Shown here piece by piece: positions 3,592-64,000 of a stretch of 64,000 bases of DNA. The DNA is taken from the NCBI GenBank assembly GCA_000004985.1, contig GG738936.1. One strand, 5' to 3'. The notes below the pieces were generated by a model. That model ran no database searches. It had not been told where the DNA came from and saw nothing but the letters and a program-made list of their open reading frames with translations. Numbering within the stretch: the stretch's first letter is position 1; every line of letters begins with the position of its first letter. The DNA comes from Naegleria gruberi (Eukaryota). Both the position numbers and the translations under genes were made by a program.

Positions 3592-3676
3592 ATAAAATTC
3601 TTTGAATATATTAATTAGTAAGAAATGGTTGTAAGGCCGAAATAATGATTAGTGGGACAAATATTCCTTAATATCT

Positions 3677-3749
3677 GCCCGTCTAGCTCAGTCGGTAGAG
3701 CGCAAGGCTCTTAACCTTGTGGTCGTGGGTTCGACCCCCACGGTGGGCG
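3677..3749 (+). tRNA. tRNA-Lys (anticodon CTT), second copy.
   Basis: A 73-nt sequence identical to 1676..1748, including the 3' flank GATTCAT and a downstream T-run. It is a direct repeat flanking the 2113..3591 gene. Confidence 0.9.
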
Positions 3750-3792
3750 ATTCATATTTTTTCTCTTAATCCTTGTGAATGAATACCTTTAT

Positions 3793-14694: not shown

Positions 14695-14765
14695 TCGGGC
14701 GTGGTATAGTGGTAGCATTCCAGACTGTCACTCTGGCGACCCGGGTTCAATTCCCGGCGTTCGAG
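14695..14765 (+). tRNA. tRNA-Asp (anticodon GTC).
   Basis: The acceptor TCGGGCG pairs with CGTTCGA (with G-U pairs). The D-arm is GTATAGTGGTAGCAT, the anticodon stem-loop is CCAGA-CTGTCAC-TCTGG, and the T-arm is CCGGGTTCAATTCCCGG. It is very similar to the eukaryotic tRNA-Asp-GTC consensus. Confidence 0.85.
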
Positions 14766-17043: not shown

Positions 17044-18222
17044 TTACTGATTTGGTGTCGATTCACAAGTTGTAATACTTATTGTAATCTCACAACATGC
17101 AGGAGTTTTCTCAACATTATTTTTCTCATCCTCACTTTCTCTTCTGATGAAATAACTCATTAATATTCTATTTCTCAAATACGAAACTAAACACAACAAG
17201 AGAAACATAATTCCAATGACCAAATAAACAACTACAAGAAACAATAGAAATGTCCACCAAGGATTTCTATAATAATTAATAATACTATATGGAAATTTTG
17301 ATACCCATCTCGATTTCATACTAATTAAAAACCAAATATAGTATAAACTAGGAAAGCACATTAATGTGACAATGTGCCACTTTCTTATTTGAAAATTAGA
17401 CAAGAGAAAGTCAATTAAGCTTAATAATCCTGTAATACCATGATAAGAAACAGTACTTTCCCAAATTTGATGTCGAATAACTTATTAGAAACTAAATACT
17501 TACACACAATCTAAAACATCCTCCTGAACACTTGCTCTTCCAACCCAATATCCAATCGAAACAACCAATGAAGCAACCAAATTTAATTCGCCTACAAACC
17601 ACAACAATATTGAAATTCCTCTCCAGCCAATTTTGATCCACTTGTCAAATTTAGAATAATTCTTTAAAAGGAAATTTGTTTCATACGAAAACCTAATCGA
17701 GAAATTTCTAAAGAATACTAAGTAGACGAAACCTAAAAATGTCTGCAGTGAGAAATAAGTGGTGAAAACCATAATCATGTGGTGTGTGAAAAAAGTTGAG
17801 TTTTTCAGATAGATATTTTCGAATAGATCTGGTCTAAGAGATGGATAGATGGAAAGGGTGGTAACAATCCATGTAAAAGTCATTATTCGAAAGATGTATA
17901 AAGCTATGGTTAGATACTTGTTGTATCCGAAAGATTCGAATACAAATTGCGAAGGGTTTCGTAAACTAATTAATTAGCTTACCATTGTAATATCTACGTA
18001 CCCATCAAGAATTAAATCTGCTCTTTTAATTTCCTCCGTTTCTTGTTGATATTTAGCAACTCTGTTTTGTCTTTGTGTGAAAACTATTCCTTTCACAATG
18101 AAGAAACCTAACGAAAGTATGAAAATAAAGGAGAATGTCATGATACTTTGGATCAACAGCACAGAACTAATCAGATCAGCACCTTGTGTTTCAGAAAGTG
18201 AAGGTAAACTTCTTGCATCCAT
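17044..18222 (-). CDS. Predicted 7-TM membrane protein (3 exons); family unknown.
   Basis: Three minus-strand ORFs (17974..18222, 17500..17883, 17044..17403) are separated by gaps of about 90 and 96 nt with splice-like ends. Together they give about 7 hydrophobic helices. Exact splice sites were not resolved. Confidence 0.5.
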
Positions 18223-18467: not shown

Positions 18468-21026
18468 TTACATCCAATACATATTACCATCCTGTGCAGA
18501 ACCTGATTTCACTGACTGTTCATCATCAGTTGATGAGCTTGTTCCTGGTTGAGCAATTTCAAATCCAAGAGAAAAAGAACTGGAAGTTGAGCTCATTGTG
18601 GATTCTCTGCTTGATGGTTTCTCTGAAAGAATAGTTTTGATATTTTCCATGAATGATGTGTAGGCCAAATTGATGAGAATTAACTTGACAATGACTTCAA
18701 TCTTTTCAAATACATCAAAGTGAGCGAGGGAGGAAATTGCCTTCTTGGCCTCAGTGTTAAATGTTTGAATGGAGGAGCGAGGGAAATCAGAAAGATTGGA
18801 AATATTGTTTTGGTCAATTAGGTAGCTCTCTACAATCTTTTTGTGAAGTTTGGCTCTTTGTTGAGGTTTGTTTGTGAGCTTGTAAGTTTCCAATTTTTCA
18901 ATCATTGCCATGTATTTAGAGGCATTAGGAATTGGGCACAATTGTAAGAATCTTGATTTGAGATAGTCATCACTGATAATTCTATTAAAATCGAGAATTT
19001 TCTTCATTTCTTCTAATTTGGTTTCTTGATCTTGGAGTGATTGTTGAAGTTCATTTTCTTCACTCAAATTGATGGCAACAATTACAAAGGCATCACTAAC
19101 TTGGCCTTCTTTAATTAGCAATCTGACATTGTAAACTTTCAATTGGACTGGTAATTGTTTGGATGTTATGGAGAAGATGTTTGTTTTCCATATACCATTA
19201 TCGCTAATTTCAGCAAATTTCTGTAGCAACTCATCGAGAGGTGTTTCCTTAAAGAATTTGTCAATGGTATCATGGAGATAGTTGACTTGTTGCTGATTTT
19301 CATTACTGTCCACAAGCTTATTATCAAAATAACTATTAGTATTGACAATCAATCCAGTACTCTTTTCAACAATGGCAATAAACTCATTAATACTATTCAT
19401 GATGCAACGATTGGATTGTTCTTGAATTGAAGTTCTTTCAAGCATTTCTTGCATTGTATCCATGTCACTAACTAGCTTTTCTTGATTCTTTTTCAAACTG
19501 GCCAACATTTGATTAATCTTTGATGAGAGAGTACCAATTTCGTCGTGACCCAATTGAGGAATTGTCTTGTTAAAATCATTTCCACTCTCATAGAAATCTC
19601 TAACAGATTTGGATAATTTTAAAATTCTTCTCAATACTGATGATTCAATAAAGATGACAACGCCAGCTGACAATACCAATACGAAGAATGTCATGACAAA
19701 CCACACGACAAGGAAGGAAGCCATACCAACTTGGAATGAACTTCTTTGAATATCAGTTCTAAACACTACTGTCTTTCCACCTGTAATGTCATTGTACATT
19801 TGATAGGCAGCCATTCTTTCATTTTGAGAACCAGCTGAGAAGGAAGAGAACTTGTTAGTAATGGTCTTGGAGCATTGTCTTCCATGGAGAATATAATCCG
19901 AGTTACTGGAAGATTTTCCAATATCAATAACCTTCACAAGAGATGCAGCATCATTTGTCCAATCAGAGTAAACATTTGTACTCGAAATATTGGTTGGTAT
20001 CCATTCACTAGTGATAGCATCAAGAGAATCTGAGATTGCATTAGATGTTGACAACTTGAAAGCACTTGTCTCATATTCACTTTTCAGGTCATAGGTCGTA
20101 ACACAAAATTGAGTCCTCTCTGAGATGTCGAGCAGATAATCATAGGTATTATACTTGGCAAAGGTGAGCATACCAAATGATTCCAGTGAGTCATATCCTT
20201 GAATTGGCATTGCATTCACAAGAAGTACGTTTGATAAAATTGAGGAATAGTTGGAAACTGCTTGTTGTGATGTTTCACTTGTTGCCAATTCTGAAAGTTT
20301 CTTACTTGGTATCATTAATCCAATGTGTCTAGTCGATGGATTTTCCAAATTATTGATAAAGAATTTCCTATATTCATTCGATTGACCATCAACAGTTTCT
20401 TGATCTAGATTAGTCAACTCAGATGGTAATCCTTCAATTGATACACCTTTAAAACAATGAATTCCTCTTAGCATTGTTCCATTTAAATAGTAAAATAAGG
20501 CCATATTTACGTTAACTCTATTCAAATAATCACAATTCATATAATCTGACATGTATTGGTCAATTGTCTCTTGTGAAGCTCCATTTACCAACTCAGTTGT
20601 CGAATCAAACGATCCATATTCAAACGTACGATCTGACAATAGCTTTAAATCATCAAACAATGCTCTTGAAACTCTCCTAGAAGATTGAGTCGATTCCACA
20701 CGTTCAACATTATGAAATATCAAAAAGAATGAGGTCAATAAAATTGCCAAACAAAAGCACACCAACAATATGAACATGACAACCAACACTGAAATTGTCT
20801 TTAAACGTAATGATGAATGTTTCTTGAATATATTCTCTTGTTGCTGCGTCGTATCTGGTGCATTGTATTTAAAAGTTAAATTTGCAATTTCTTTCAACTC
20901 TATTTTCATTTCTTTTAATTCTTCCGAATTGCTATTATTATTATTAATGGATGGAGAATGCTGAAGAGATGTTGCGGAAGATGATGGAATTGATTCAACA
21001 ACTGAAAGGTTGAGTTGTTGCGTCAT
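18468..21026 (-). CDS. Receptor-like protein: TM1, an extracellular sensor domain of about 300 aa, TM2, a HAMP domain, a PAS-like region and a C-terminal RGS-like domain.
   Basis: An 852-aa uninterrupted ORF with a verified ATG. TM1 is ISVLVVMFILLVCFCLAILLTSFF. The extracellular region is Cys- and N-glycosylation-rich. TM2 is MASFLVVWFVMTFFVLVLSAGVVIFI. A HAMP signature follows immediately (RRILKLSKSVRDF...LGHDEIGTLSSKINQMLASL). The C-terminus resembles an RGS domain (FNRIISDDYLKSRFLQLCPIPNASKYMAMIEKLETYK...FDVFEKIEVIVKLILINLAYTSFMEN). Confidence 0.6.
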   Translation of the reverse strand: MTQQLNLSVVESIPSSSATSLQHSPSINNNNSNSEELKEMKIELKEIANLTFKYNAPDTTQQQENIFKKHSSLRLKTISVLVVMFILLVCFCLAILLTSFFLIFHNVERVESTQSSRRVSRALFDDLKLLSDRTFEYGSFDSTTELVNGASQETIDQYMSDYMNCDYLNRVNVNMALFYYLNGTMLRGIHCFKGVSIEGLPSELTNLDQETVDGQSNEYRKFFINNLENPSTRHIGLMIPSKKLSELATSETSQQAVSNYSSILSNVLLVNAMPIQGYDSLESFGMLTFAKYNTYDYLLDISERTQFCVTTYDLKSEYETSAFKLSTSNAISDSLDAITSEWIPTNISSTNVYSDWTNDAASLVKVIDIGKSSSNSDYILHGRQCSKTITNKFSSFSAGSQNERMAAYQMYNDITGGKTVVFRTDIQRSSFQVGMASFLVVWFVMTFFVLVLSAGVVIFIESSVLRRILKLSKSVRDFYESGNDFNKTIPQLGHDEIGTLSSKINQMLASLKKNQEKLVSDMDTMQEMLERTSIQEQSNRCIMNSINEFIAIVEKSTGLIVNTNSYFDNKLVDSNENQQQVNYLHDTIDKFFKETPLDELLQKFAEISDNGIWKTNIFSITSKQLPVQLKVYNVRLLIKEGQVSDAFVIVAINLSEENELQQSLQDQETKLEEMKKILDFNRIISDDYLKSRFLQLCPIPNASKYMAMIEKLETYKLTNKPQQRAKLHKKIVESYLIDQNNISNLSDFPRSSIQTFNTEAKKAISSLAHFDVFEKIEVIVKLILINLAYTSFMENIKTILSEKPSSRESTMSSTSSSFSLGFEIAQPGTSSSTDDEQSVKSGSAQDGNMYWM

Positions 21027-21359: not shown

Positions 21360-22784
21360 TTATTTACGTTTGAAAATGTTAAATAGAGTGTTAGGTCTTT
21401 TTCTAACTTCTTTGGATTGTGGTGGTTCAGATGATGATGGAGGGAATGATTTAGAATTATTGTTAACTGTTTGTTGTTTCTTTTGAGATCCGTTATCTAA
21501 ATCTGAATTGAGTGATGAGATTTTGTAACCAGTGTTTTGTTCATGTTGTGAGATGATTAAACCAATAGATTGAGATCTTCTCTTTTCATTAATGACTGGA
21601 GAGCTAGTGGAAATGGAATTTGATCTATTTCTTATTTTGTTTCCAATATTTTTGAAAGAGTCAACCAATCTAAGACTAGCTCTTCTATTTTCCAAATTTG
21701 GAGTACTGGATGAGGCAGAGTTATTCGTTCTTGAAGATGAAATCACCAAACTGGACCTTCTCTGTTTTGTTTCAATATTTGCTGTAACGCTCTTTGGCCT
21801 TATTATTGATTTTGCAAGTTCTTTCACATCCTCAAAGAAGGTTAGCACATTCTCCCCAGTAACACTCGAACATTCATAAAACTTGATATCACTTCCAATA
21901 ACATTCCTATGTGAGAGAATATGTGACTCTGAAACTGTTCTATCATCCTCGAGGTCTGTCTTGACTCCTACTGCCATTATCTTTCGTTGCTGACCTCCTC
22001 TAGGAGTTCTTGGAGAGGTCATTAATAGAGCTGGACTCTGAGGGGATCCAAATTTGAAACTAGCAAGTGGATCAGCATGGGTTTCGTCTGAAGGCAGATT
22101 TGAGGTTATCTTTGATAATTGTTCATGGTAAAGGACAAGAGATTCGAATGAAGGCAGCTCTGTTACATCGTAAACCATAATCACTAAATGGGCTCTAGCC
22201 ACAGTTTTTACAAACTCCAAATCACTATCCATCATGTTTCTATTTCTTATATCTGAAAAGGAATGAGAAAGTAAGAAAAAGTTTAGTTTTACATTTCTTT
22301 CTCCATTTTCCACCTCAATCACCTTTGAATAGTCTGCTCTCAATTCATCATTCTCCTTCCTGAACGAATGTAATGATGAGAAGGATGAACTCCTCTCCGA
22401 TAGAACCGATTGATCATCATTGGCTGTCCAAGTAGAAGCCTCATCATCTAATTCTTCTTCATCTCCCACCTGACGAATTGAATTCATAAATGTAGAAGGA
22501 TTGTAGTAACCATTAATCATGTAAGAAACCAGTGATTTCTTACCAACTCCTCTTGTACCTAACACACAAATATTGTAGGCTTGAGGATTTTGATTTGATA
22601 CATTGTTGGCTGAATTATTATTGGTTGTATTCGAAGTCGTTACGGCACTCGAAGAGAGCAGATCTGATGAAGAACCACCTCCCAATAACATTGAGGGTAT
22701 AATATTCAATAGACTACTCCTTCTCCTCCTGATGAGTGTAGCAGAAGAGGTTGTGTCATGGTTATTATTATTGTTCATCATCAT
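21360..22784 (-). CDS. Divergent Ras-superfamily small GTPase-domain protein with long low-complexity N- and C-terminal extensions.
   Basis: The motifs found are a P-loop GTRGVGKKS, a G4-like VKTD and a G5-like ECSSV. No DxxGQ (G3) motif was found, which suggests a pseudo-GTPase or a highly divergent one. The start is taken at the ATG run MMMNNNNN, because the ORF-track start is a TTG. Confidence 0.5.
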   Translation of the reverse strand: MMMNNNNNHDTTSSATLIRRRRSSLLNIIPSMLLGGGSSSDLLSSSAVTTSNTTNNNSANNVSNQNPQAYNICVLGTRGVGKKSLVSYMINGYYNPSTFMNSIRQVGDEEELDDEASTWTANDDQSVLSERSSSFSSLHSFRKENDELRADYSKVIEVENGERNVKLNFFLLSHSFSDIRNRNMMDSDLEFVKTVARAHLVIMVYDVTELPSFESLVLYHEQLSKITSNLPSDETHADPLASFKFGSPQSPALLMTSPRTPRGGQQRKIMAVGVKTDLEDDRTVSESHILSHRNVIGSDIKFYECSSVTGENVLTFFEDVKELAKSIIRPKSVTANIETKQRRSSLVISSSRTNNSASSSTPNLENRRASLRLVDSFKNIGNKIRNRSNSISTSSPVINEKRRSQSIGLIISQHEQNTGYKISSLNSDLDNGSQKKQQTVNNNSKSFPPSSSEPPQSKEVRKRPNTLFNIFKRK

Positions 22785-22944
22785 TTCGTTTTTTTTAAAA
22801 TGAAATTGTGTGTGCTTGGTTGAGTAAGGAAAAAGGGCGGGCTGTAGATATGTGATGAAAGACAATGTGTGGCTATTGGAATAGAGGAAGATTAAATGAC
22901 TACAATCTACGATGACTATTGAGAATTGAGAGATTGAAATGTTT

Positions 22945-24703
22945 TTAATACTTTTTCAATTTCTTGGCGGCTGTTGTTGGAGTGTAAGTAAAATCTGACC
23001 TAATAGCAATAAATCTGTTTTGATAGGAAATTACTGGGTTGACCAAGGTAAGACCTTGAAGAGATGGAAGTGGGAATCCTCTCTTTGCAAGAGTATTACC
23101 AATTGGAACAACTCCATATTCGAAAATTAAATCAACAATAGTAGAAACCAATTGAACGTCCAATGGGCCAATATTTGAATAAGCAAGTGTGACATTAGAA
23201 CTCTTATAAGTAAGGGTTCCAGTGATATTGGAGGCAACAATAGAAGCTTCCAAATCCATAACAGCATTGAAATTCAAAGCAAAGGCATTGACTGGTCCAG
23301 TTGGTTGAACAACTTGGAAAATGGCTTGAGCAATGAGGTTAACCTCAGCACCATTAGCTGGAGAAATGGAAATAGTTGGTGGACTAGCAGTGGTAAAGTC
23401 AATTTGCATTTCAAGACCTGGATATTTTGCGTATAATTGAGGAAGGAAATATTGCAAATTAGTAGTGTTGAAAAGCCATTGGAAAGAAGATGGGAAAATG
23501 TGTTGAGTGAGTAAATAATTGAACAATCCAGCTTCGTTAAAAGCAAATCCAGCAGTATTGAGGGTATAATCACTGACAAAGATTTCAGCCATCTTATCAG
23601 CTCCAAGAGAGTTTGGCATTGAAGGAGTTGGTCCTGCATAACCTGGTTGATTCTTAACAAATAATCTACCAGCAGTTCCAACAATGAGAGAATTTGAAGT
23701 ATTGTAGACAACACTTTGCAAAGTACTATCAAATAAAACACCCATTGATAAGATTGGAATTTGGAGATTGAGAGTTGCCAATTCCTTACTCAAGACAGTA
23801 TTAATAGCTCCAGCAACTTGAGTATTGATGGCGTTTTGTGCACTTTGTTCAATAGAGTCTCTGAAATTGTTGAGGAAAACATTGTACAACCAACTTGCTC
23901 CACCATGTAATTTCAAATTAAAGCTAGTGAATTTGGCATTGAAATTTCCAAGAACGACATTGAAGTGAGATTCATCAATAATCACAATTTGAGCTGTAAG
24001 AGTGATATCAACTATGTGGTGTTAGAAACTATTCTAAACTAATTACATACTTGCAACAGAAGCATCAGCACTACCTGAATCACTAATATGTGGCCATGAA
24101 TCCTCTAATATTGTTTGTAAAATTAATATTCATCCAAACTAATAATACTAACCTCTGTAATGCCAATTCTGATCAAAATATTATTAATTAATTAATGTCA
24201 ATAAAAACTTACACAATGAAGACTAGCTTGAGCATTGCTAATAGTAATTTGGAGAGCAGTTGGACCAACAACAATTGATGGAATAGAGATATCAAAATTA
24301 CTCAAAGTAATTTGAGAAATGGTGGCAGTTAAATGTCCGATTGGTGTATCTGTAATAATAAATTTCAACATTAAATAACACTTCCTCACAACATACCAAC
24401 TCTAGTTGTAACATCAGGAATAGCAATAGTTGATGTGATTTGTTTTTGAATAAATGGCGTTAATTGATTAGACATGTAATTCAAAGCACGTTGTTGTGTA
24501 TTAACAGAAATTCCAGATGGCAAAACCATAGGTTGTTTAACAGAAGAATTCTTTTTTAATTTATGAATAGAGATTGGCTTTAATGATTCCGAGCCACCAA
24601 TCATCATCATCAAGACAACAATGATCAAAGTTGTTCCAACCAAGAACAAGCTAGTGTTGTTATTCATATTTCTCTTCATTTTTTTCTTCGCTGATTTTTT
24701 CAT
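22945..24703 (-). CDS. Secreted BPI/LBP/CETP-like lipid-binding protein (tentative), with about 6 exons.
   Basis: The first exon has a signal peptide (NTSLFLVGTTLIIVVLMMMIGG). Short exons at about 24386..24700, 24198..24345 and about 24030..24130 are joined by GTATGT/GTAAGT donors to the large exon 22945..23985. The protein is beta-rich with alternating hydrophobic residues (ISQITLSNFDISIPSIVVGPTALQITISNAQASLH). The BPI-fold assignment rests on composition and pattern and is not certain. Confidence 0.4.
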
Positions 24704-24907
24704 TGTTGGAATTTTCAGTAAAGCCTTACCAGGTTTTTTGAAGATGCACACAACGCAGCCTTCACAACTTGAAAAAAAAAGCCTTTATATTGTTGCTGAT
24801 AATTTTTGTTTCCATTGGCAGTGGCACAATGTAAGGCTGAAAAATATATTGAGGGGCGATTAAGTTTCTTTTTCGGAACACTTGATTACCTAGAAATTAA
24901 CAAAAAA

Positions 24908-27100
24908 ATGAGCAAAATTAAACCTGCAGACATGTTGGAGGCATCACTACAACAAATTAAAAATGTTGTTGGTGTTGGTTCATCATCGGAGAGTGTTGGA
25001 AAGATTGTGGTGAATGTTAGCAAGATTTTGGAGGAAAATTCTGCCTATTTGGGGATTACTACATTTTACGAGAGTAACAAGTTGACATCTTCGCAGTTTG
25101 GATCAAGTTGTAGGAATTTTCAGAAATGTTTGGATAGAGTGGAACATTTGGAATTGAGTGGAAATCAGTTGGAGTATTTTATTGTTAATGAAAAGTTGAC
25201 AAGTGACTCAAAGTATTTTGTTAGCCAATTTGCAAAGAGTTTGACATTCTTGGATTTATCTAATAACATGATCAAGAATTTTCCTATTGAATGTTTGAGT
25301 ATTCCATTAAAAATATTAAATTTGGAAAATAATTTAATTACGAGTTTGGAAAATCTAGTGAAAGAGTTGAATGAGAACAAATCGGAAATGAAATTGTTGA
25401 ATTGTCTTGAGAGTTTAAATATTTCCAAAAATTTAATTCAACATTTTCCATTCTACATAATTGTTAAAAAGTTCAAAAAGGTTGATAGTATTGACCTAGG
25501 TGAAAATCCATTACAATCTCTTTCTATTAACATGTTGAAGGAACAGAAAAAGGGAATATTTGGAAGTAACGCATCATCTTCTGATAAAAACGAAGACATC
25601 AAGATATTGACTGACTATTCAGATGCTTCTATTACAAGTGTAAAGATGAACTCTATTGACCTTGAAACTATTAGAAAGAGGCTCGAGTTGAAAACTCCAT
25701 TATTATCCAACAAAACCAATTCAATTTTTAATTTATTTAAAAAGAAAATATCAGATGATATTTCATTCGATAACAGCAAGGATTTCTTCCCTGTGGAGTT
25801 ATTTGATCTTCCAAATATACAACATCTAGACCTTTCCAAAAACAAACATTTAAATTATTCCAAGATGAAACAACTTGTACTCAGTCCATCCATAACATCA
25901 CTTAATCTGTCCAATTGTCAATTAGATGAATCTGTTTCTAGAATATTCAAATCAATTTTAAACAATTCTATCAGGAAGTTGATATTACACAACAATAATA
26001 TCAAGGAAATTTTAATAGAAGATTTTCCAAATATCATTTCAATTAATTTATCCAATAATATTGAATACTACAAAAAGGATGAGAATATTTATAACATACT
26101 ATCGAATGTTAATCCAAAAATTGAAGAATTAACATTGAAACGAGTTTTTAAGAACGAAGAAGGATACAAAGACCTATTAAATCTGAGTCTTATAAGAAAT
26201 AATCTAGAAGTGCCCAAAATTGGAATTTCCTTATCCAAGTTTTCCAGTATCAGATCTTTGACACTCAGTGGATTATTTCTTTCATCAATTCCTTTAGATA
26301 TTAACCAATCAAATATGCCTAACATTGAATTTTTGGATCTTTCAGAAAATGAAATTGGAGATTTTTCTAGTAATTTGTTAATGCTCACAGAATTGAAGTC
26401 GATAGACCTCTCATTCAATAATATTTCAACAATAGATGTAGATGATGAAATGTGCAACTTGACCAAGCTTACATCATTGGACCTTTCGCATAATAATCTC
26501 ACAGAATTTCCAATTGATCTAGTTCTATTATTACCCTCTATAGATATTCTTTCTCTTGAGTACAATACTAGTAATTTGAAAACAGCAAGAGAAGACAAGA
26601 ATGATATATTCAACCAATGGATGAAGGATCATAGTTCTGTGAAAATTAAACGAATGCTCATTGAACCAAGTTTAATTCTTGAGAGATTATATCTGGGAGG
26701 AAATGGTTCTGCCCAAAGTAAACACAATATGAAATTACTGGGCATTACTCACGTATTGAATGTTGCTGAGGGTTTAATAGCTCCATATCCTTTCGATTTC
26801 AAATATAAGAAAGTTGAACTTTCTGATACGTTAGGCGAGGATTTACTTCCGCACATAGATGCTTGTGTAAAATTTATAGAAGAGGCCATTGATTCACAAG
26901 GAACCATTCTTGTGCATTGCAAGGCAGGAGTAAGTCGTTCTGCCTCAATGGTAATTGCTTATGTAATGAAGAAATTCAAACTCTCTTTAGATGAAGCAAC
27001 TCAAATGGTAAAGGAGAAGCGTTCACAGATTTGTCCTAATGGAGCATTTGTAAAACAATTGGAAGATTATGGACGTTTATTGAATCGTGAATCACATTAG
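24908..27100 (+). CDS. mpl1: Leucine-rich-repeat protein with a C-terminal dual-specificity phosphatase domain (MPL1-like MAP kinase phosphatase with LRRs).
   Basis: There are many LxxLxLxxNxL repeats (LDLSNNMIKNFP, LNLENNLITSLE, LDLSHNNLTEFP and others). The C-terminal DUSP domain carries the active site VHCKAGVSRSASMVIAYVM (HCxxGxxRS). This architecture is known from Dictyostelium MPL1. The ATG at 24908 follows an upstream region without a good start. Confidence 0.75.
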   Translation: MSKIKPADMLEASLQQIKNVVGVGSSSESVGKIVVNVSKILEENSAYLGITTFYESNKLTSSQFGSSCRNFQKCLDRVEHLELSGNQLEYFIVNEKLTSDSKYFVSQFAKSLTFLDLSNNMIKNFPIECLSIPLKILNLENNLITSLENLVKELNENKSEMKLLNCLESLNISKNLIQHFPFYIIVKKFKKVDSIDLGENPLQSLSINMLKEQKKGIFGSNASSSDKNEDIKILTDYSDASITSVKMNSIDLETIRKRLELKTPLLSNKTNSIFNLFKKKISDDISFDNSKDFFPVELFDLPNIQHLDLSKNKHLNYSKMKQLVLSPSITSLNLSNCQLDESVSRIFKSILNNSIRKLILHNNNIKEILIEDFPNIISINLSNNIEYYKKDENIYNILSNVNPKIEELTLKRVFKNEEGYKDLLNLSLIRNNLEVPKIGISLSKFSSIRSLTLSGLFLSSIPLDINQSNMPNIEFLDLSENEIGDFSSNLLMLTELKSIDLSFNNISTIDVDDEMCNLTKLTSLDLSHNNLTEFPIDLVLLLPSIDILSLEYNTSNLKTAREDKNDIFNQWMKDHSSVKIKRMLIEPSLILERLYLGGNGSAQSKHNMKLLGITHVLNVAEGLIAPYPFDFKYKKVELSDTLGEDLLPHIDACVKFIEEAIDSQGTILVHCKAGVSRSASMVIAYVMKKFKLSLDEATQMVKEKRSQICPNGAFVKQLEDYGRLLNRESH

Positions 27101-60474: not shown

Positions 60475-61875
60475 ATGAAAATTGATGAGTTAACCAACAA
60501 AATCAGTAGAAAAAAAATGTCATCTCCTTCACAACAACAACAATTACATACAGTTTTAATAACAGGTGGATGTGGTTGTATTGCCCAACACTTAACAAAG
60601 GAATTATTATTAAATCATGAAGAATTAAATATTGATAAAATTATTTTACTTGATGTTCAACGTGAATGGACTCCTTTCTGGCATGTTTACAATAATTCTA
60701 ATACTATTAATAATACTACTACTATTGAATCTAATAATGATGATAATTCTAATAATAATTCTAATTCTAATAATAATATATGGAAATATCCAAGTTTAGA
60801 AATTGAAAAGGAAAAGATAAAATTCTATCAAATTGACATGTGTAATGAAAATAAATTAAATGAATTATTTTCGCAATTAATATCAGAATATAAAAATTTA
60901 ACAACAATATTTCATGTCATGTCAGCAATATTATTATGGTCACCACAAATGACAGATTTGGAAATATTAAATGTACAAATTACAAATCAATTATTAACAT
61001 TATCATTTAAATATTCTGATTATATTAAAAATTTTATATATACTAGTTCAGGTAATGTTTATTATAAAACATTTTCAGAAAATAAAAATTTTACAAGTGA
61101 AGATGAATTTCAAATCATTGAAAAAAATGAAAAATTTGAAATTTTAAATTCAAAAATTAATTTTCCAAATAATACACCATTAAATGTTGAATATAATTAT
61201 ATCATTACAAAAAGAAAAGCACATAAATTAGTAATAGAAAGACCATTTAAAGAAAATCAAAAATTAAATTCACTCGTATTAACACTTTGTATGACTATAT
61301 ATGGTGAAGGTGATCAAAATACTTTAAATTTAATTCAATCAAATAGAACTAATTTAGATATATCTGCAAAAGGTCATTCTTTATATGCAGGTAATGCTGC
61401 ACATGCTCATATTTTAGCATTTAAACAACTTTTAAATAATCCAAATATGGTAAGAGGAATGACATTTTCAGTACATGAAAATAATTTTGGACAATTATAT
61501 TTTAAAGCCTTGAGAGGTATTATGAAAAGTTTAACTAAAAATGATGAAAAATATTCAGAAAATAATACTCAAAAAATTCCAATTATATTCATGTATTTAA
61601 TTTGTTATTTTTTTATTATTTATAATTATATAATTTATTTATTAAATTTAATTTTACCATTTAAATTTATTAAAAAATTATATTTATATCCATTAGTTAC
61701 TAAATTTGTAATTGATGTTACTTATTTAAATAGATATGATGATTTTGATTTGAAAAATATTGAAAAATATTTAAATTATAAACCAAAATATAAAAGTGAA
61801 CAAGCCTATGATAGAATTGCACATTATTTAAAATCATTAGAAAAATTAGGTAAAATTAAATTACCAAAAATGTAA
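60475..61875 (+). CDS. NAD(P)-dependent 3-beta-hydroxysteroid dehydrogenase/NSDHL-like epimerase-dehydratase family protein with a C-terminal TM.
   Basis: A Rossmann motif VLITGGCGCIAQHL is present. The catalytic YxxxK-type region is SLYAGNAAHAHILAF. There are Asn-rich inserts, and the C-terminal hydrophobic segment IPIIFMYLICYFFIIYNYIIYLLNLILPF is typical of ER-anchored sterol dehydrogenases. The ATG at 60475 was verified. Confidence 0.7.
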   Translation: MKIDELTNKISRKKMSSPSQQQQLHTVLITGGCGCIAQHLTKELLLNHEELNIDKIILLDVQREWTPFWHVYNNSNTINNTTTIESNNDDNSNNNSNSNNNIWKYPSLEIEKEKIKFYQIDMCNENKLNELFSQLISEYKNLTTIFHVMSAILLWSPQMTDLEILNVQITNQLLTLSFKYSDYIKNFIYTSSGNVYYKTFSENKNFTSEDEFQIIEKNEKFEILNSKINFPNNTPLNVEYNYIITKRKAHKLVIERPFKENQKLNSLVLTLCMTIYGEGDQNTLNLIQSNRTNLDISAKGHSLYAGNAAHAHILAFKQLLNNPNMVRGMTFSVHENNFGQLYFKALRGIMKSLTKNDEKYSENNTQKIPIIFMYLICYFFIIYNYIIYLLNLILPFKFIKKLYLYPLVTKFVIDVTYLNRYDDFDLKNIEKYLNYKPKYKSEQAYDRIAHYLKSLEKLGKIKLPKM

Positions 61876-62692
61876 ATATTTTAAATAATTTAAAAATATT
61901 ATACTCTATTTAAATTCATTGTACAATATATCCATCATCAAAATAAACAAATAAATTATTATTATTATTATAATCAAATCATACTGCAATAATTTACTAT
62001 TATTATCATCAAACCGTTCATTAATGAATTTCAAACTTTCCCAATAAAGTTATTGAAACTTTAAATAGTCCGTTATAATCATCATACTCATTAATAATAC
62101 TACATGTCACTAATCAAAAGAAGAAGAATAAAAAAACAAATAAAAACATCATCATCATCAATTAATAACAAATCAAATGGGTAATGCTTTTGTTGTTAGA
62201 TCAAGAACACTCTCATCAGAAAGAGAAAATTACTACGGAGACGAAGTATATGAACCTAACAATAATAACAATAATAATTCAACAAATAATAATAATAACA
62301 ATTCAACGAAGAATAAGAATAGACAACGTATAGCAAATAATCAACCAACATCATCAACTCCATCATCTCCAACAACTAAACAATCATCAAATAATAATAA
62401 TACAAAATACTAATACTAACAATAATGAAGTAAATAATAGTAAAAATGTTAATAATAATAATCAACAATCATCCCTAGATTCTAATAATGTTTCTAATAA
62501 TAATAATAATAATAATAACAATACAATAACATCATCAACAATCACAACATCAATACCAATACAAACACAAAATTCCATAGAAAGATCATCCTCTACAATA
62601 ACCACTACTAGTACAACAACAACAACAACAACAACTCTGTTATTACATCATCAACACAACAACATTTACAATTATTACAACAAGTAGATGAA

Positions 62693-64000
62693 ATGTATAA
62701 AGAAATTGAAGCCTTTTCACAAGTTTCACCAGAATATAAAATTGGAATTTATAATTTATATAAAAAGATTAAAAAAAGATATCAATCTAATAATAGTATT
62801 GCAACACCCAATGAAATATCTTTGAAAAAACATTCCATTAGAATTGGTTCACCTTTACATTTTTATAAATATTTTAATGTACAATTAAAATTTGTAAAGG
62901 AAATGATTTATCAAGAATATTTAAATGATTTGGAAAATAATTTAACAAATATGGAAAATAATGAAGAAGAAGAAATTCCAAGTATGGAAGAATATTTTTC
63001 ACAAATTCCATCTAATGAAATTAAATTTAAAAAACCTTTAAAAGTAAAATTAATAATTTCAGATTTAAATCAACCTAAATTAGCAAGTAAAATGGCAAGT
63101 ACAGTAAATTCATTTGTAAATGTATTTTCCCAATTTGGATGGGTACATACTGCATTTAGTATTTCTAATTTAAAATTTGATTGGGTTAAAAGTGAATATT
63201 GTGAAACAGGTGATGTTAAAGGTACTTCATGTTTATTAGCAATTACTGTTAAGGAAATTGAATATTTAAATGAATTAGAAAATTGTTTAAAAATAGTATG
63301 TTTTTTTTTAATTTAATTTTTAATTTTTAATATATTTTAATTAATTTATTTTTTATAATTTCATAACTTTAATTAATTATTTATTAAAATATAATTAAAA
63401 TATAATTAAATAATTAAATAATTAATTAAATAATAATTAATTAATTAAATAATAATTAAATATAGTTAAGTGAAGAAGTATCAAAATGGAATAGAGAATA
63501 TTCATATGGAAGTGTAACTAATGATAAAAAATTACATTCTAAAAAAGTAGCAAATTGTCAAGACTTTACAATTTACATGTTACAACAAATTGGAGTTAAA
63601 GATTTAAAATTTGAAAATACAAGTATTGGAGATTATTTAGAATCAGTATTTAATAAAGGATTAATAGATATAGTATTTACTACAAATAAGGAATTTAGAG
63701 ATAAATATAATTTACTATTTAAAGAAAATAATATAAATAGAATAATTGATAAAAAACATACATTTCCTACACATAAAGATTTAGATTTATTTGTACATGA
63801 TTTTTTTAAAGTAGATTCAACATTTGAATCAACAGAAGAATGTCAATTATTAAAAGCCTTTGATAGAGGTTTTTGGTTAAAATATAGAAAATCATGTCAA
63901 ACGTCATCTTCATTTGATGATACTATTAGAAATGAACCTTTACATTTAGAAAATGAACATACTCATCATTTGGAAATTAATTGTCCATTTGGTGATCCAC
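62693..64000 (+). CDS. PPPDE/DeSI-like peptidase domain protein. Two exons are visible and the gene continues beyond the window.
   Basis: Exon 1 is 62693..63295 and ends at a GTATGT donor. A 170-nt AT-rich intron (63296..63465) follows, and exon 2 starts at 63466 in phase 0. His-containing motif 1 is FGWVHTAFSISNLKFDWVKSEYCETG. The Cys motif ANCQDFTIYMLQQIGV parallels the PPPDE NCNHFS...L motif. An upstream low-complexity ORF, 62177..62413, may belong to the same gene. Confidence 0.5.

Follow-up and report, generated by a model that had tools for sequence, protein, structure and literature searches.

We analyzed a window of 64,000 nucleotides of nuclear DNA from Naegleria gruberi (assembly GCA_000004985.1, contig GG738936.1) and focused on one gene in it, which lies on the minus strand at positions 18468..21026 and encodes a predicted membrane receptor with a bacterial-type sensory input and an RGS-fold output. 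The gene is a complete open reading frame (ORF) of 852 amino acids, running from ATG to stop, and its coding region is intronless. From M40 on, the ORF is 100% identical to an 813-aa protein listed at NCBI as a 'predicted protein' of N. gruberi. The host is thus a heterolobosean and not a dictyostelid, as had been assumed in a preliminary description of this locus that was made from the sequence alone. The public N. gruberi gene model starts at M40, and the ORF reaches 39 codons further, to an upstream ATG. A long Asn-rich N-terminus is likewise present in a homologue from Willaertia magna. No paralogue of the 852-aa ORF was found elsewhere within the window. The features of the gene are as follows:

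18468..21026 (-), complete ORF including the stop codon, 852 aa
20910-21026 (-), codons 1-39 upstream of M40, an Asn/Ser-rich stretch
20799..21026 (-), cytosolic N-terminal region, residues 1-76, low-complexity and predicted to be disordered (pLDDT <50 for residues 1-58)
20718..20798 (-), first transmembrane segment (TM1), residues ~77-103, Kyte-Doolittle maximum 3.31, helix 73-138 in the structure model
19728..20717 (-), extracytoplasmic CHASE4 domain, residues 104-433, with a lineage-specific insertion
19647..19727 (-), second transmembrane segment (TM2), residues ~434-460, Kyte-Doolittle maximum 2.67, helix 429-480 in the structure model
19491..19646 (-), HAMP domain, residues 461-512, consisting of the AS1 helix, a connector and the AS2 helix with GHDEIGTLSSKINQMLASL
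19392..19490 (-), signalling-helix or coiled-coil linker, residues 513-545, from the structure model and heptad pattern
19065..19391 (-), cytoplasmic PAS domain, residues 546-654, assigned by its PAS fold
18993..19064 (-), helical connector between PAS and the output domain, residues 655-678, whose first residues are a conserved N-x-S-E where the final PAS strand ends
18621..18992 (-), divergent RGS-fold domain, residues 679-802
18471..18620 (-), Ser/Thr-rich disordered C-terminal tail, residues 803-852 (pLDDT <50)

Domain order of the predicted receptor

The elements of the protein are arranged in the order cytosolic N-terminus, TM1, CHASE4, TM2, HAMP, coiled coil, PAS, helix and RGS fold. 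Hydropathy analysis revealed two strongly hydrophobic segments, with basic residues on the N-terminal side of TM1, where the stretch KKHSSLRLK immediately precedes the membrane segment, and on the C-terminal side of TM2. This pattern indicates a topology in which the N-terminus is inside, the ectodomain outside and the C-terminus inside. The Pfam HAMP model (PF00672) matched residues 462-512 over model positions 4-52 of 53, with a score of 30.6 bits against a gathering cutoff of 25. The CHASE4 model (PF05228) matched residues 122-310 at 28.3 bits, a marginal pass of its cutoff of 26.2. NCBIfam gave only weak matches, to bacterial sensors containing HAMP, and searches by sequence against solved structures returned no match for either the whole protein or the ectodomain profile.

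An AlphaFold2 model of the full-length protein as a monomer, built with a 44-sequence alignment of the family described below, had a mean pLDDT of 78, with values above 90 in the ectodomain. The model contains a TM1/scaffold helix (residues 73-138), in which TM1 extends without a break into the long helix that scaffolds the ectodomain; an alpha/beta ectodomain; a helix leading from TM2 into HAMP AS1 (429-480); and AS2 (496-521). The HAMP domain is thereby placed straight after TM2, its two helices being joined by a loop at residues 481-495, and the family consensus of its AS2 helix is G.DElG.L..dIN.ML. The C-terminal half consists of a PAS-like alpha/beta unit (546-653), a long helix (655-685) and a helical bundle (687-802). 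When the full model was used as a query, Foldseek retrieved WalK, chemoreceptors, LOV-histidine kinases and FixL, matches that point to the layout of bacterial TM-HAMP-PAS proteins.

The ectodomain lies between the two TM helices and has the fold of the solved CHASE4 domain of Pseudomonas aeruginosa PA2072, which was its best structural match in the PDB. That domain, a sensor of extracellular ATP and Fe3+, is described as having two subdomains on a scaffold helix, one membrane-distal and PAS-like, the other small and membrane-proximal (PMC12625894). In a profile comparison with hhalign, the ectodomain profile of the family aligned to a bacterial CHASE4 protein, which itself scores 146 bits on Pfam, over 219 columns from TM1 to TM2 (98.2%, E 5e-14). 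Two Cys residues of the ectodomain, C308 and C385, showed no variation across the 42 family sequences spanning these positions and presumably form a disulfide; C385 sits within the extra insertion of the heterolobosean CHASE4 domain.

On the cytoplasmic side, heptad a/d positions were 60-67% hydrophobic in the linkers (67% for residues 513-545), compared with a background of ~32-34%. Residues 546-654 fold in the model as a five-stranded antiparallel sheet with flanking helices, as expected for PAS, and no Pfam PAS model matched the 852-aa protein even at E up to 10. Neither a LOV nor a heme signature was found in this segment, and a LOV-type photoreceptor PAS was ruled out by the absence of the NCRFLQ motif from it.

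HMM, profile and fold evidence thus bears out the single-gene architecture that the preliminary description had put forward (TM, ectodomain, TM, HAMP, PAS and RGS): the HAMP linker was recovered by Pfam, the ectodomain proved to belong to one of the sensor families that had been considered for it (Cache or CHASE), and the structure predictions gave a well-modelled ectodomain and, as detailed below, an RGS fold. The same description had called the ectodomain rich in Cys and N-glycosylation sites, which was an overstatement, as only four Cys residues and three NxS/T sequons occur in 329 aa.

A heterolobosean family

A word-indexed search retrieved just the protein itself and one homologue, from W. 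magna, and the family was revealed by an exhaustive HMMER search. Searching the word index with the C-terminal 288 aa returned nothing, missing even the query. With the alignment of 44 family sequences as the query, the matches were limited to the protein itself and three PAS/CHASE4 proteins that are unrelated to it. In these searches the filter for candidates was probably saturated by low-complexity words. The exhaustive search gave 1701 matches at E up to 1e-3. Approximately 45 of the 50%-identity representatives combine the ectodomain, TM2/HAMP, PAS and RGS in co-linear order. The named members are all heterolobosean (N. gruberi, N. fowleri, N. lovaniensis, W. magna and Acrasis kona), and the rest are metagenomic proteins. 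In N. gruberi itself, seven or more additional paralogues were found, among them XP_002669406 and XP_002671054 ('RGS domain-containing protein').

Across the 44 aligned sequences, Pfam at E up to 1e-3 recognized RGS in 40, CHASE4 in 31, HAMP in 25 and individual PAS models in 6-11. The W. magna homologue, for instance, scored 52.9 bits for RGS, 45.2 for CHASE4 and 30.2 for HAMP. Compared with the PDB, the RGS profile of the family matched RGS18, RGS8, RGS2, RGS16 and RGS4 over the full domain at ~1e-14. We also scored 41 members for five canonical G-alpha contacts in RGS4 numbering, namely E87, N88, N128, D163 and R167, with Glu also allowed at D163 and Lys at R167, and found all five kept in 32 of them.

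The CHASE4-TM-HAMP input also occurs with other outputs. In bacteria such as Pelotomaculum it is followed by PAS-HisKA-HATPase, and the input module of the heterolobosean family may derive from bacterial sensors, which would fit its occurrence with such other outputs. In the metagenomic proteins P0044, P0046 and P0060, the same input is joined to a class III adenylate/guanylate cyclase; the first two are neighbours on one 12.4-kb JGI contig.

Relatives of the protein already carry automatic labels in the databases, such as 'HAMP domain-containing protein' or 'RGS domain-containing protein'. No paper linking HAMP or CHASE4 with RGS or with Naegleria was found in the searchable literature, and the preliminary description had not recognized the arrangement among described RGS proteins; an earlier mention, for example in the survey of Anantharaman et al. 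2011, is possible.

The divergent RGS-fold domain and its proposed role

The C-terminal domain of this copy departs from the rest of the family. The Pfam RGS model (PF00615) matched residues 679-795 over model positions 1-111 of 117, at 18.7 bits (E 0.0024), below the cutoff of 23.9, and this copy was the sole full-length family member to fail the model at 1e-3. However, a family RGS HMM built without this copy matched the domain at 63.7 bits (E 3e-21), which makes its RGS homology secure. A model of the isolated domain reached a pLDDT of 90, and all of its top 50 PDB matches in Foldseek were RGS or RGS-homology domains, including GRK2, Axin, SNX25, RGS8, RGS16 and RGS4, with TM-scores of ~0.6-0.7. 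The domain therefore combines homology to bona fide RGS domains with the RGS helical fold. The RGS assignment of the preliminary description stood as to homology and fold and fell short of the Pfam threshold.

To map individual residues, RGS4 was added to the family profile alignment, and its numbering reproduces S85, N128 and D163. In this alignment, S85 of RGS4 corresponds to A702, E87 to K704, N88 to Y705, D163 to L787, S164 to A788 and R167 to S791, while N128 corresponds to N744, which is kept and is followed by a 6-residue insertion. Hence only one of the five canonical G-alpha contacts, N744, is retained, the changes being E87K, N88Y, D163L and R167S. The RGS core residues F680, Y715 and R724, which are invariant or nearly so across the family, are also present in this copy.

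We compared each domain of this copy with those of its nine closest relatives, and used the mean identity among those nine as the reference. The ectodomain was 31.7% identical to the nine, compared with 29.2% among them. The corresponding values were 42.0% and 46.4% for HAMP, 34.0% and 41.2% for PAS, and 23.5% and 46.2% for RGS. The sensory and transmission modules are therefore conserved at the level seen among paralogues, and the divergence of this copy is specific to its RGS domain, which by this measure appears to have diverged about twice as far as its other domains. Four other family members have an RGS domain that is about equally degenerate: P0020, P0034 and P0062 keep one contact each, and P0028 keeps none. 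These four have lost most of the contacts independently, and degenerate RGS outputs thus recur in the family.

We propose that the protein works, presumably as a dimer, as a receptor that crosses the membrane twice, and that a full sensory input of bacterial type stands in for the seven-transmembrane (7TM) part of known receptor-RGS proteins. In the family as a whole, binding of a ligand to CHASE4 would shift TM2 and the HAMP bundle. This change would then travel through the heptad-patterned coiled coils and PAS to the RGS domains, and would alter their access to, or orientation toward, G-alpha, so that the acceleration of GTP hydrolysis on G-alpha is tuned. In N. fowleri, G-alpha subunits self-activate and 7TM-RGS proteins deactivate them; the genome encodes 79 further RGS proteins, which were left uncharacterized (PMC9283941). 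The heterolobosean family plausibly represents a second class of receptor GTPase-activating proteins (GAPs) beside the 7TM-RGS proteins. That an extracellular ligand is coupled directly to the deactivation of G-alpha, as claimed in the preliminary description, is a reasonable expectation for the family, given the contacts kept in most of its members, but it is doubtful for the gene described here, with its single retained contact and sub-threshold RGS score.

Mutation of E87, N88 or N128 in RGS4 causes the loss of more than 90% of GAP activity (PMC3434218). Similarly, both GAP activity and binding are abolished in the plant protein Selaginella SmRGS by Ala substitutions at E313 and N357, two residues of the acidic patch through which G-alpha is contacted in the complex with RGS4 (PMC11061236). 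With four of its five contacts replaced, this copy is unlikely to be a conventional GAP. On balance, we favor the reading that its RGS-fold output is GAP-inactive and could act in either of two ways. The copy may modulate active paralogues through mixed dimers, or it may use a non-canonical surface to bind a partner, either G-alpha or a different one, in the manner of the RGS-homology domains found in GRK2, Axin and SNX proteins. The wider picture, in which heterolobosean cells possess a second class of receptor-GAPs whose ligands set the rate of G-alpha deactivation by way of CHASE4-TM-HAMP-PAS, and in which pseudo-RGS copies regulate or compete with active paralogues, is offered more tentatively, as a possibility that we consider slightly short of even.

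A different view of this copy is that it is still a ligand-regulated GAP, its divergent RGS domain being active on a cognate, equally divergent Naegleria G-alpha. The RGS fold is intact in the model, the equivalent of Asn128 is kept, the domain is clearly homologous to those of paralogues with intact motifs, and the lineage-specific diversification of G-alpha in N. gruberi (PMC3971589) leaves room for co-evolved pairs. However, E87K, N88Y, D163L, S164A and R167S together would remove most of the switch-I and switch-II contacts, whereas in RGS4 a single substitution at E87 or N88 is already as costly as noted above. The RGS domain has also evolved at about double the pace of the remaining protein, and its Pfam score is under the gathering threshold; retained GAP activity of this kind therefore appears unlikely, although it is the strongest of the competing explanations. 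Another explanation, which we regard as improbable, is that the gene is a decaying paralogue that is losing its function after duplication and whose RGS domain is drifting neutrally toward a pseudogene. In favor of decay are the accelerated divergence confined to the RGS domain, the loss of the motif in P0020, P0028, P0034 and P0062 as well, and the plausible redundancy among the many N. gruberi paralogues. Set against decay are 852 codons without interruption, an ectodomain, HAMP and PAS that are as well conserved as among paralogues, an RGS core that is kept in a fold predicted with confidence, and P0023, a 170-aa N-terminal fragment from another sample that is 80% identical to this copy and apparently comes from an orthologue.

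It is hardly credible that the architecture is an artefact of the gene model or assembly, with the sensor-HAMP part and the RGS part coming from different genes, or with the sensor part representing bacterial contamination. This idea draws on the fact that, outside Heterolobosea, the CHASE4-TM-HAMP part has its closest relatives among bacterial sensor kinases, such as that of Pelotomaculum. However, the gene is one ORF with no internal stop, its GC content is that of its surroundings (~33%, uniform), and the flanking ORFs are ordinary eukaryotic genes encoding a Ras-like GTPase, a BPI/LBP-family protein and a leucine-rich repeat (LRR) dual-specificity phosphatase. In addition, the co-linear order is repeated in ~40 proteins from five species and independent assemblies, and its recurrence in at least five heterolobosean species shows that the one-gene architecture is real and excludes a fusion artefact.

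Several points weigh against our preferred reading of this copy as a GAP-inactive modulator or binding protein, and against the model for the family. The catalytic-site residue equivalent to Asn128 is retained as N744. Naegleria G-alpha proteins are divergent, and a co-evolved, non-canonical interface could provide GAP activity. The argument from contact residues is borrowed by analogy from R4 RGS proteins of mammals and a single RGS protein of a plant. The output is also a monomeric-type RGS domain, on which a HAMP/PAS coiled-coil signal would have to act. Neither the metagenome scan nor an exact-sequence contig look-up yielded a close full-length orthologue, the one close relative obtained being the fragment P0023; the altered RGS residues may be conserved in orthologues, which would point to a new function, or may be drifting. 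Finally, either M1 or M40 may be the start codon.

Comparison with known systems and flanking genes

Fusions of a receptor to an RGS domain are the main G-protein input where G-alpha loads GTP spontaneously, as in plants, Trichomonas and Naegleria, and to our knowledge those described all use a 7TM receptor. Like the 7TM-RGS receptor-GAPs, which include AtRGS1 and 28 proteins of N. fowleri (PMC9283941), the heterolobosean family carries its RGS domain in the cytoplasm, at the C-terminal end of a membrane receptor. The setting is also shared, in that G-alpha is self-activating, so regulated deactivation is the signalling step, and most members of the new family keep the canonical contacts. Unlike the 7TM-RGS proteins, however, the family has an input made of a two-TM CHASE4 ectodomain, HAMP and PAS, with two TM helices in both hydropathy analysis and the structure model, and dimeric bundles of helices would carry the signal. 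This copy differs further in lacking four of the five contact residues.

The order TM1-CHASE4-TM2-HAMP-PAS is the same as in bacterial CHASE4-HAMP-PAS histidine kinases and diguanylate cyclases/phosphodiesterases, for example Pelotomaculum WP_240083557 and P. aeruginosa PA2072/IsmP (PDB 8wct and 8Z5K), and identity to bacterial sensors is ~24-33% over the end of CHASE4, TM2 and HAMP. In contrast to the DHp/CA, GGDEF/EAL or cyclase outputs of the bacterial proteins, the heterolobosean output is a eukaryote-type RGS fold; in addition, the ectodomain has an insertion with the invariant Cys pair, and the host is a eukaryote.

The absence of a full contact set from an RGS fold is shared with the non-GAP RGS-homology domains of GRK2, Axin and SNX13/14/25, and Foldseek placed GRK2, Axin and SNX25 among the top matches to the model of the isolated domain. 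However, there is no specific sequence kinship to these proteins, and the family to which this domain belongs otherwise looks like canonical R4-type RGS. The best-known eukaryotic HAMP proteins are the fungal group III hybrid histidine kinases (Nik1/Os-1/TcsC). They too carry HAMP in a eukaryotic signalling protein, but as cytosolic poly-HAMP with a kinase output, whereas the protein described here has a single membrane-proximal HAMP after TM2 and an RGS-fold output.

The family shows that a strictly eukaryotic output can be coupled to the two-TM/HAMP device that prokaryotes use for transmission, and it forms a bridge between the sensor toolkit of bacteria and the control of heterotrimeric G proteins. 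It offers a tractable system for the question of how coiled-coil signals from HAMP and PAS control an output that is non-enzymatic and of the binding type, as well as a natural comparison, inside one genome, between active-looking and degenerate RGS outputs. Its members are also candidates for some of the 79 uncharacterized non-7TM RGS proteins of the pathogen N. fowleri. What is new here is the recognition and interpretation of the arrangement; the sequences themselves were already public, with automatic domain labels.

Directly upstream of the receptor gene is a 501-aa ORF of a Ras-family-like GTPase (21360-22865, minus strand). Its Pfam Ras match is limited to model positions 104-158 (residues 293-349), and a P-loop-like GTRGVGKKS occurs ~190 residues before this match, which suggests either a large insertion or an unspliced intron that was read through by the ORF finder. 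Further upstream are a protein with a BPI/LBP/CETP C-terminal domain (22945-23985, minus strand; Pfam 116.8 bits) and an LRR and dual-specificity phosphatase protein (24806-27100, plus strand; DSPc 119 bits). Just downstream of the receptor gene, at 17044-18222 on the minus strand, are three consecutive hydrophobic ORF pieces of 119, 127 and 82 aa, the middle one of which has no Pfam match. They are probably exons of a single multi-pass membrane-protein gene.

Elsewhere in the window, three tRNA genes were found on the plus strand, at 1676-1748, 3676-3750 and 14695-14765. Two of them, 2 kb apart, encode tRNA-Lys(CTT), and one encodes tRNA-Asp(GTC). At 61000-64000, GC content falls to 18-24%, compared with ~33% in the remainder, and this region contains AAT and TTAA microsatellites together with AT-rich minisatellites.

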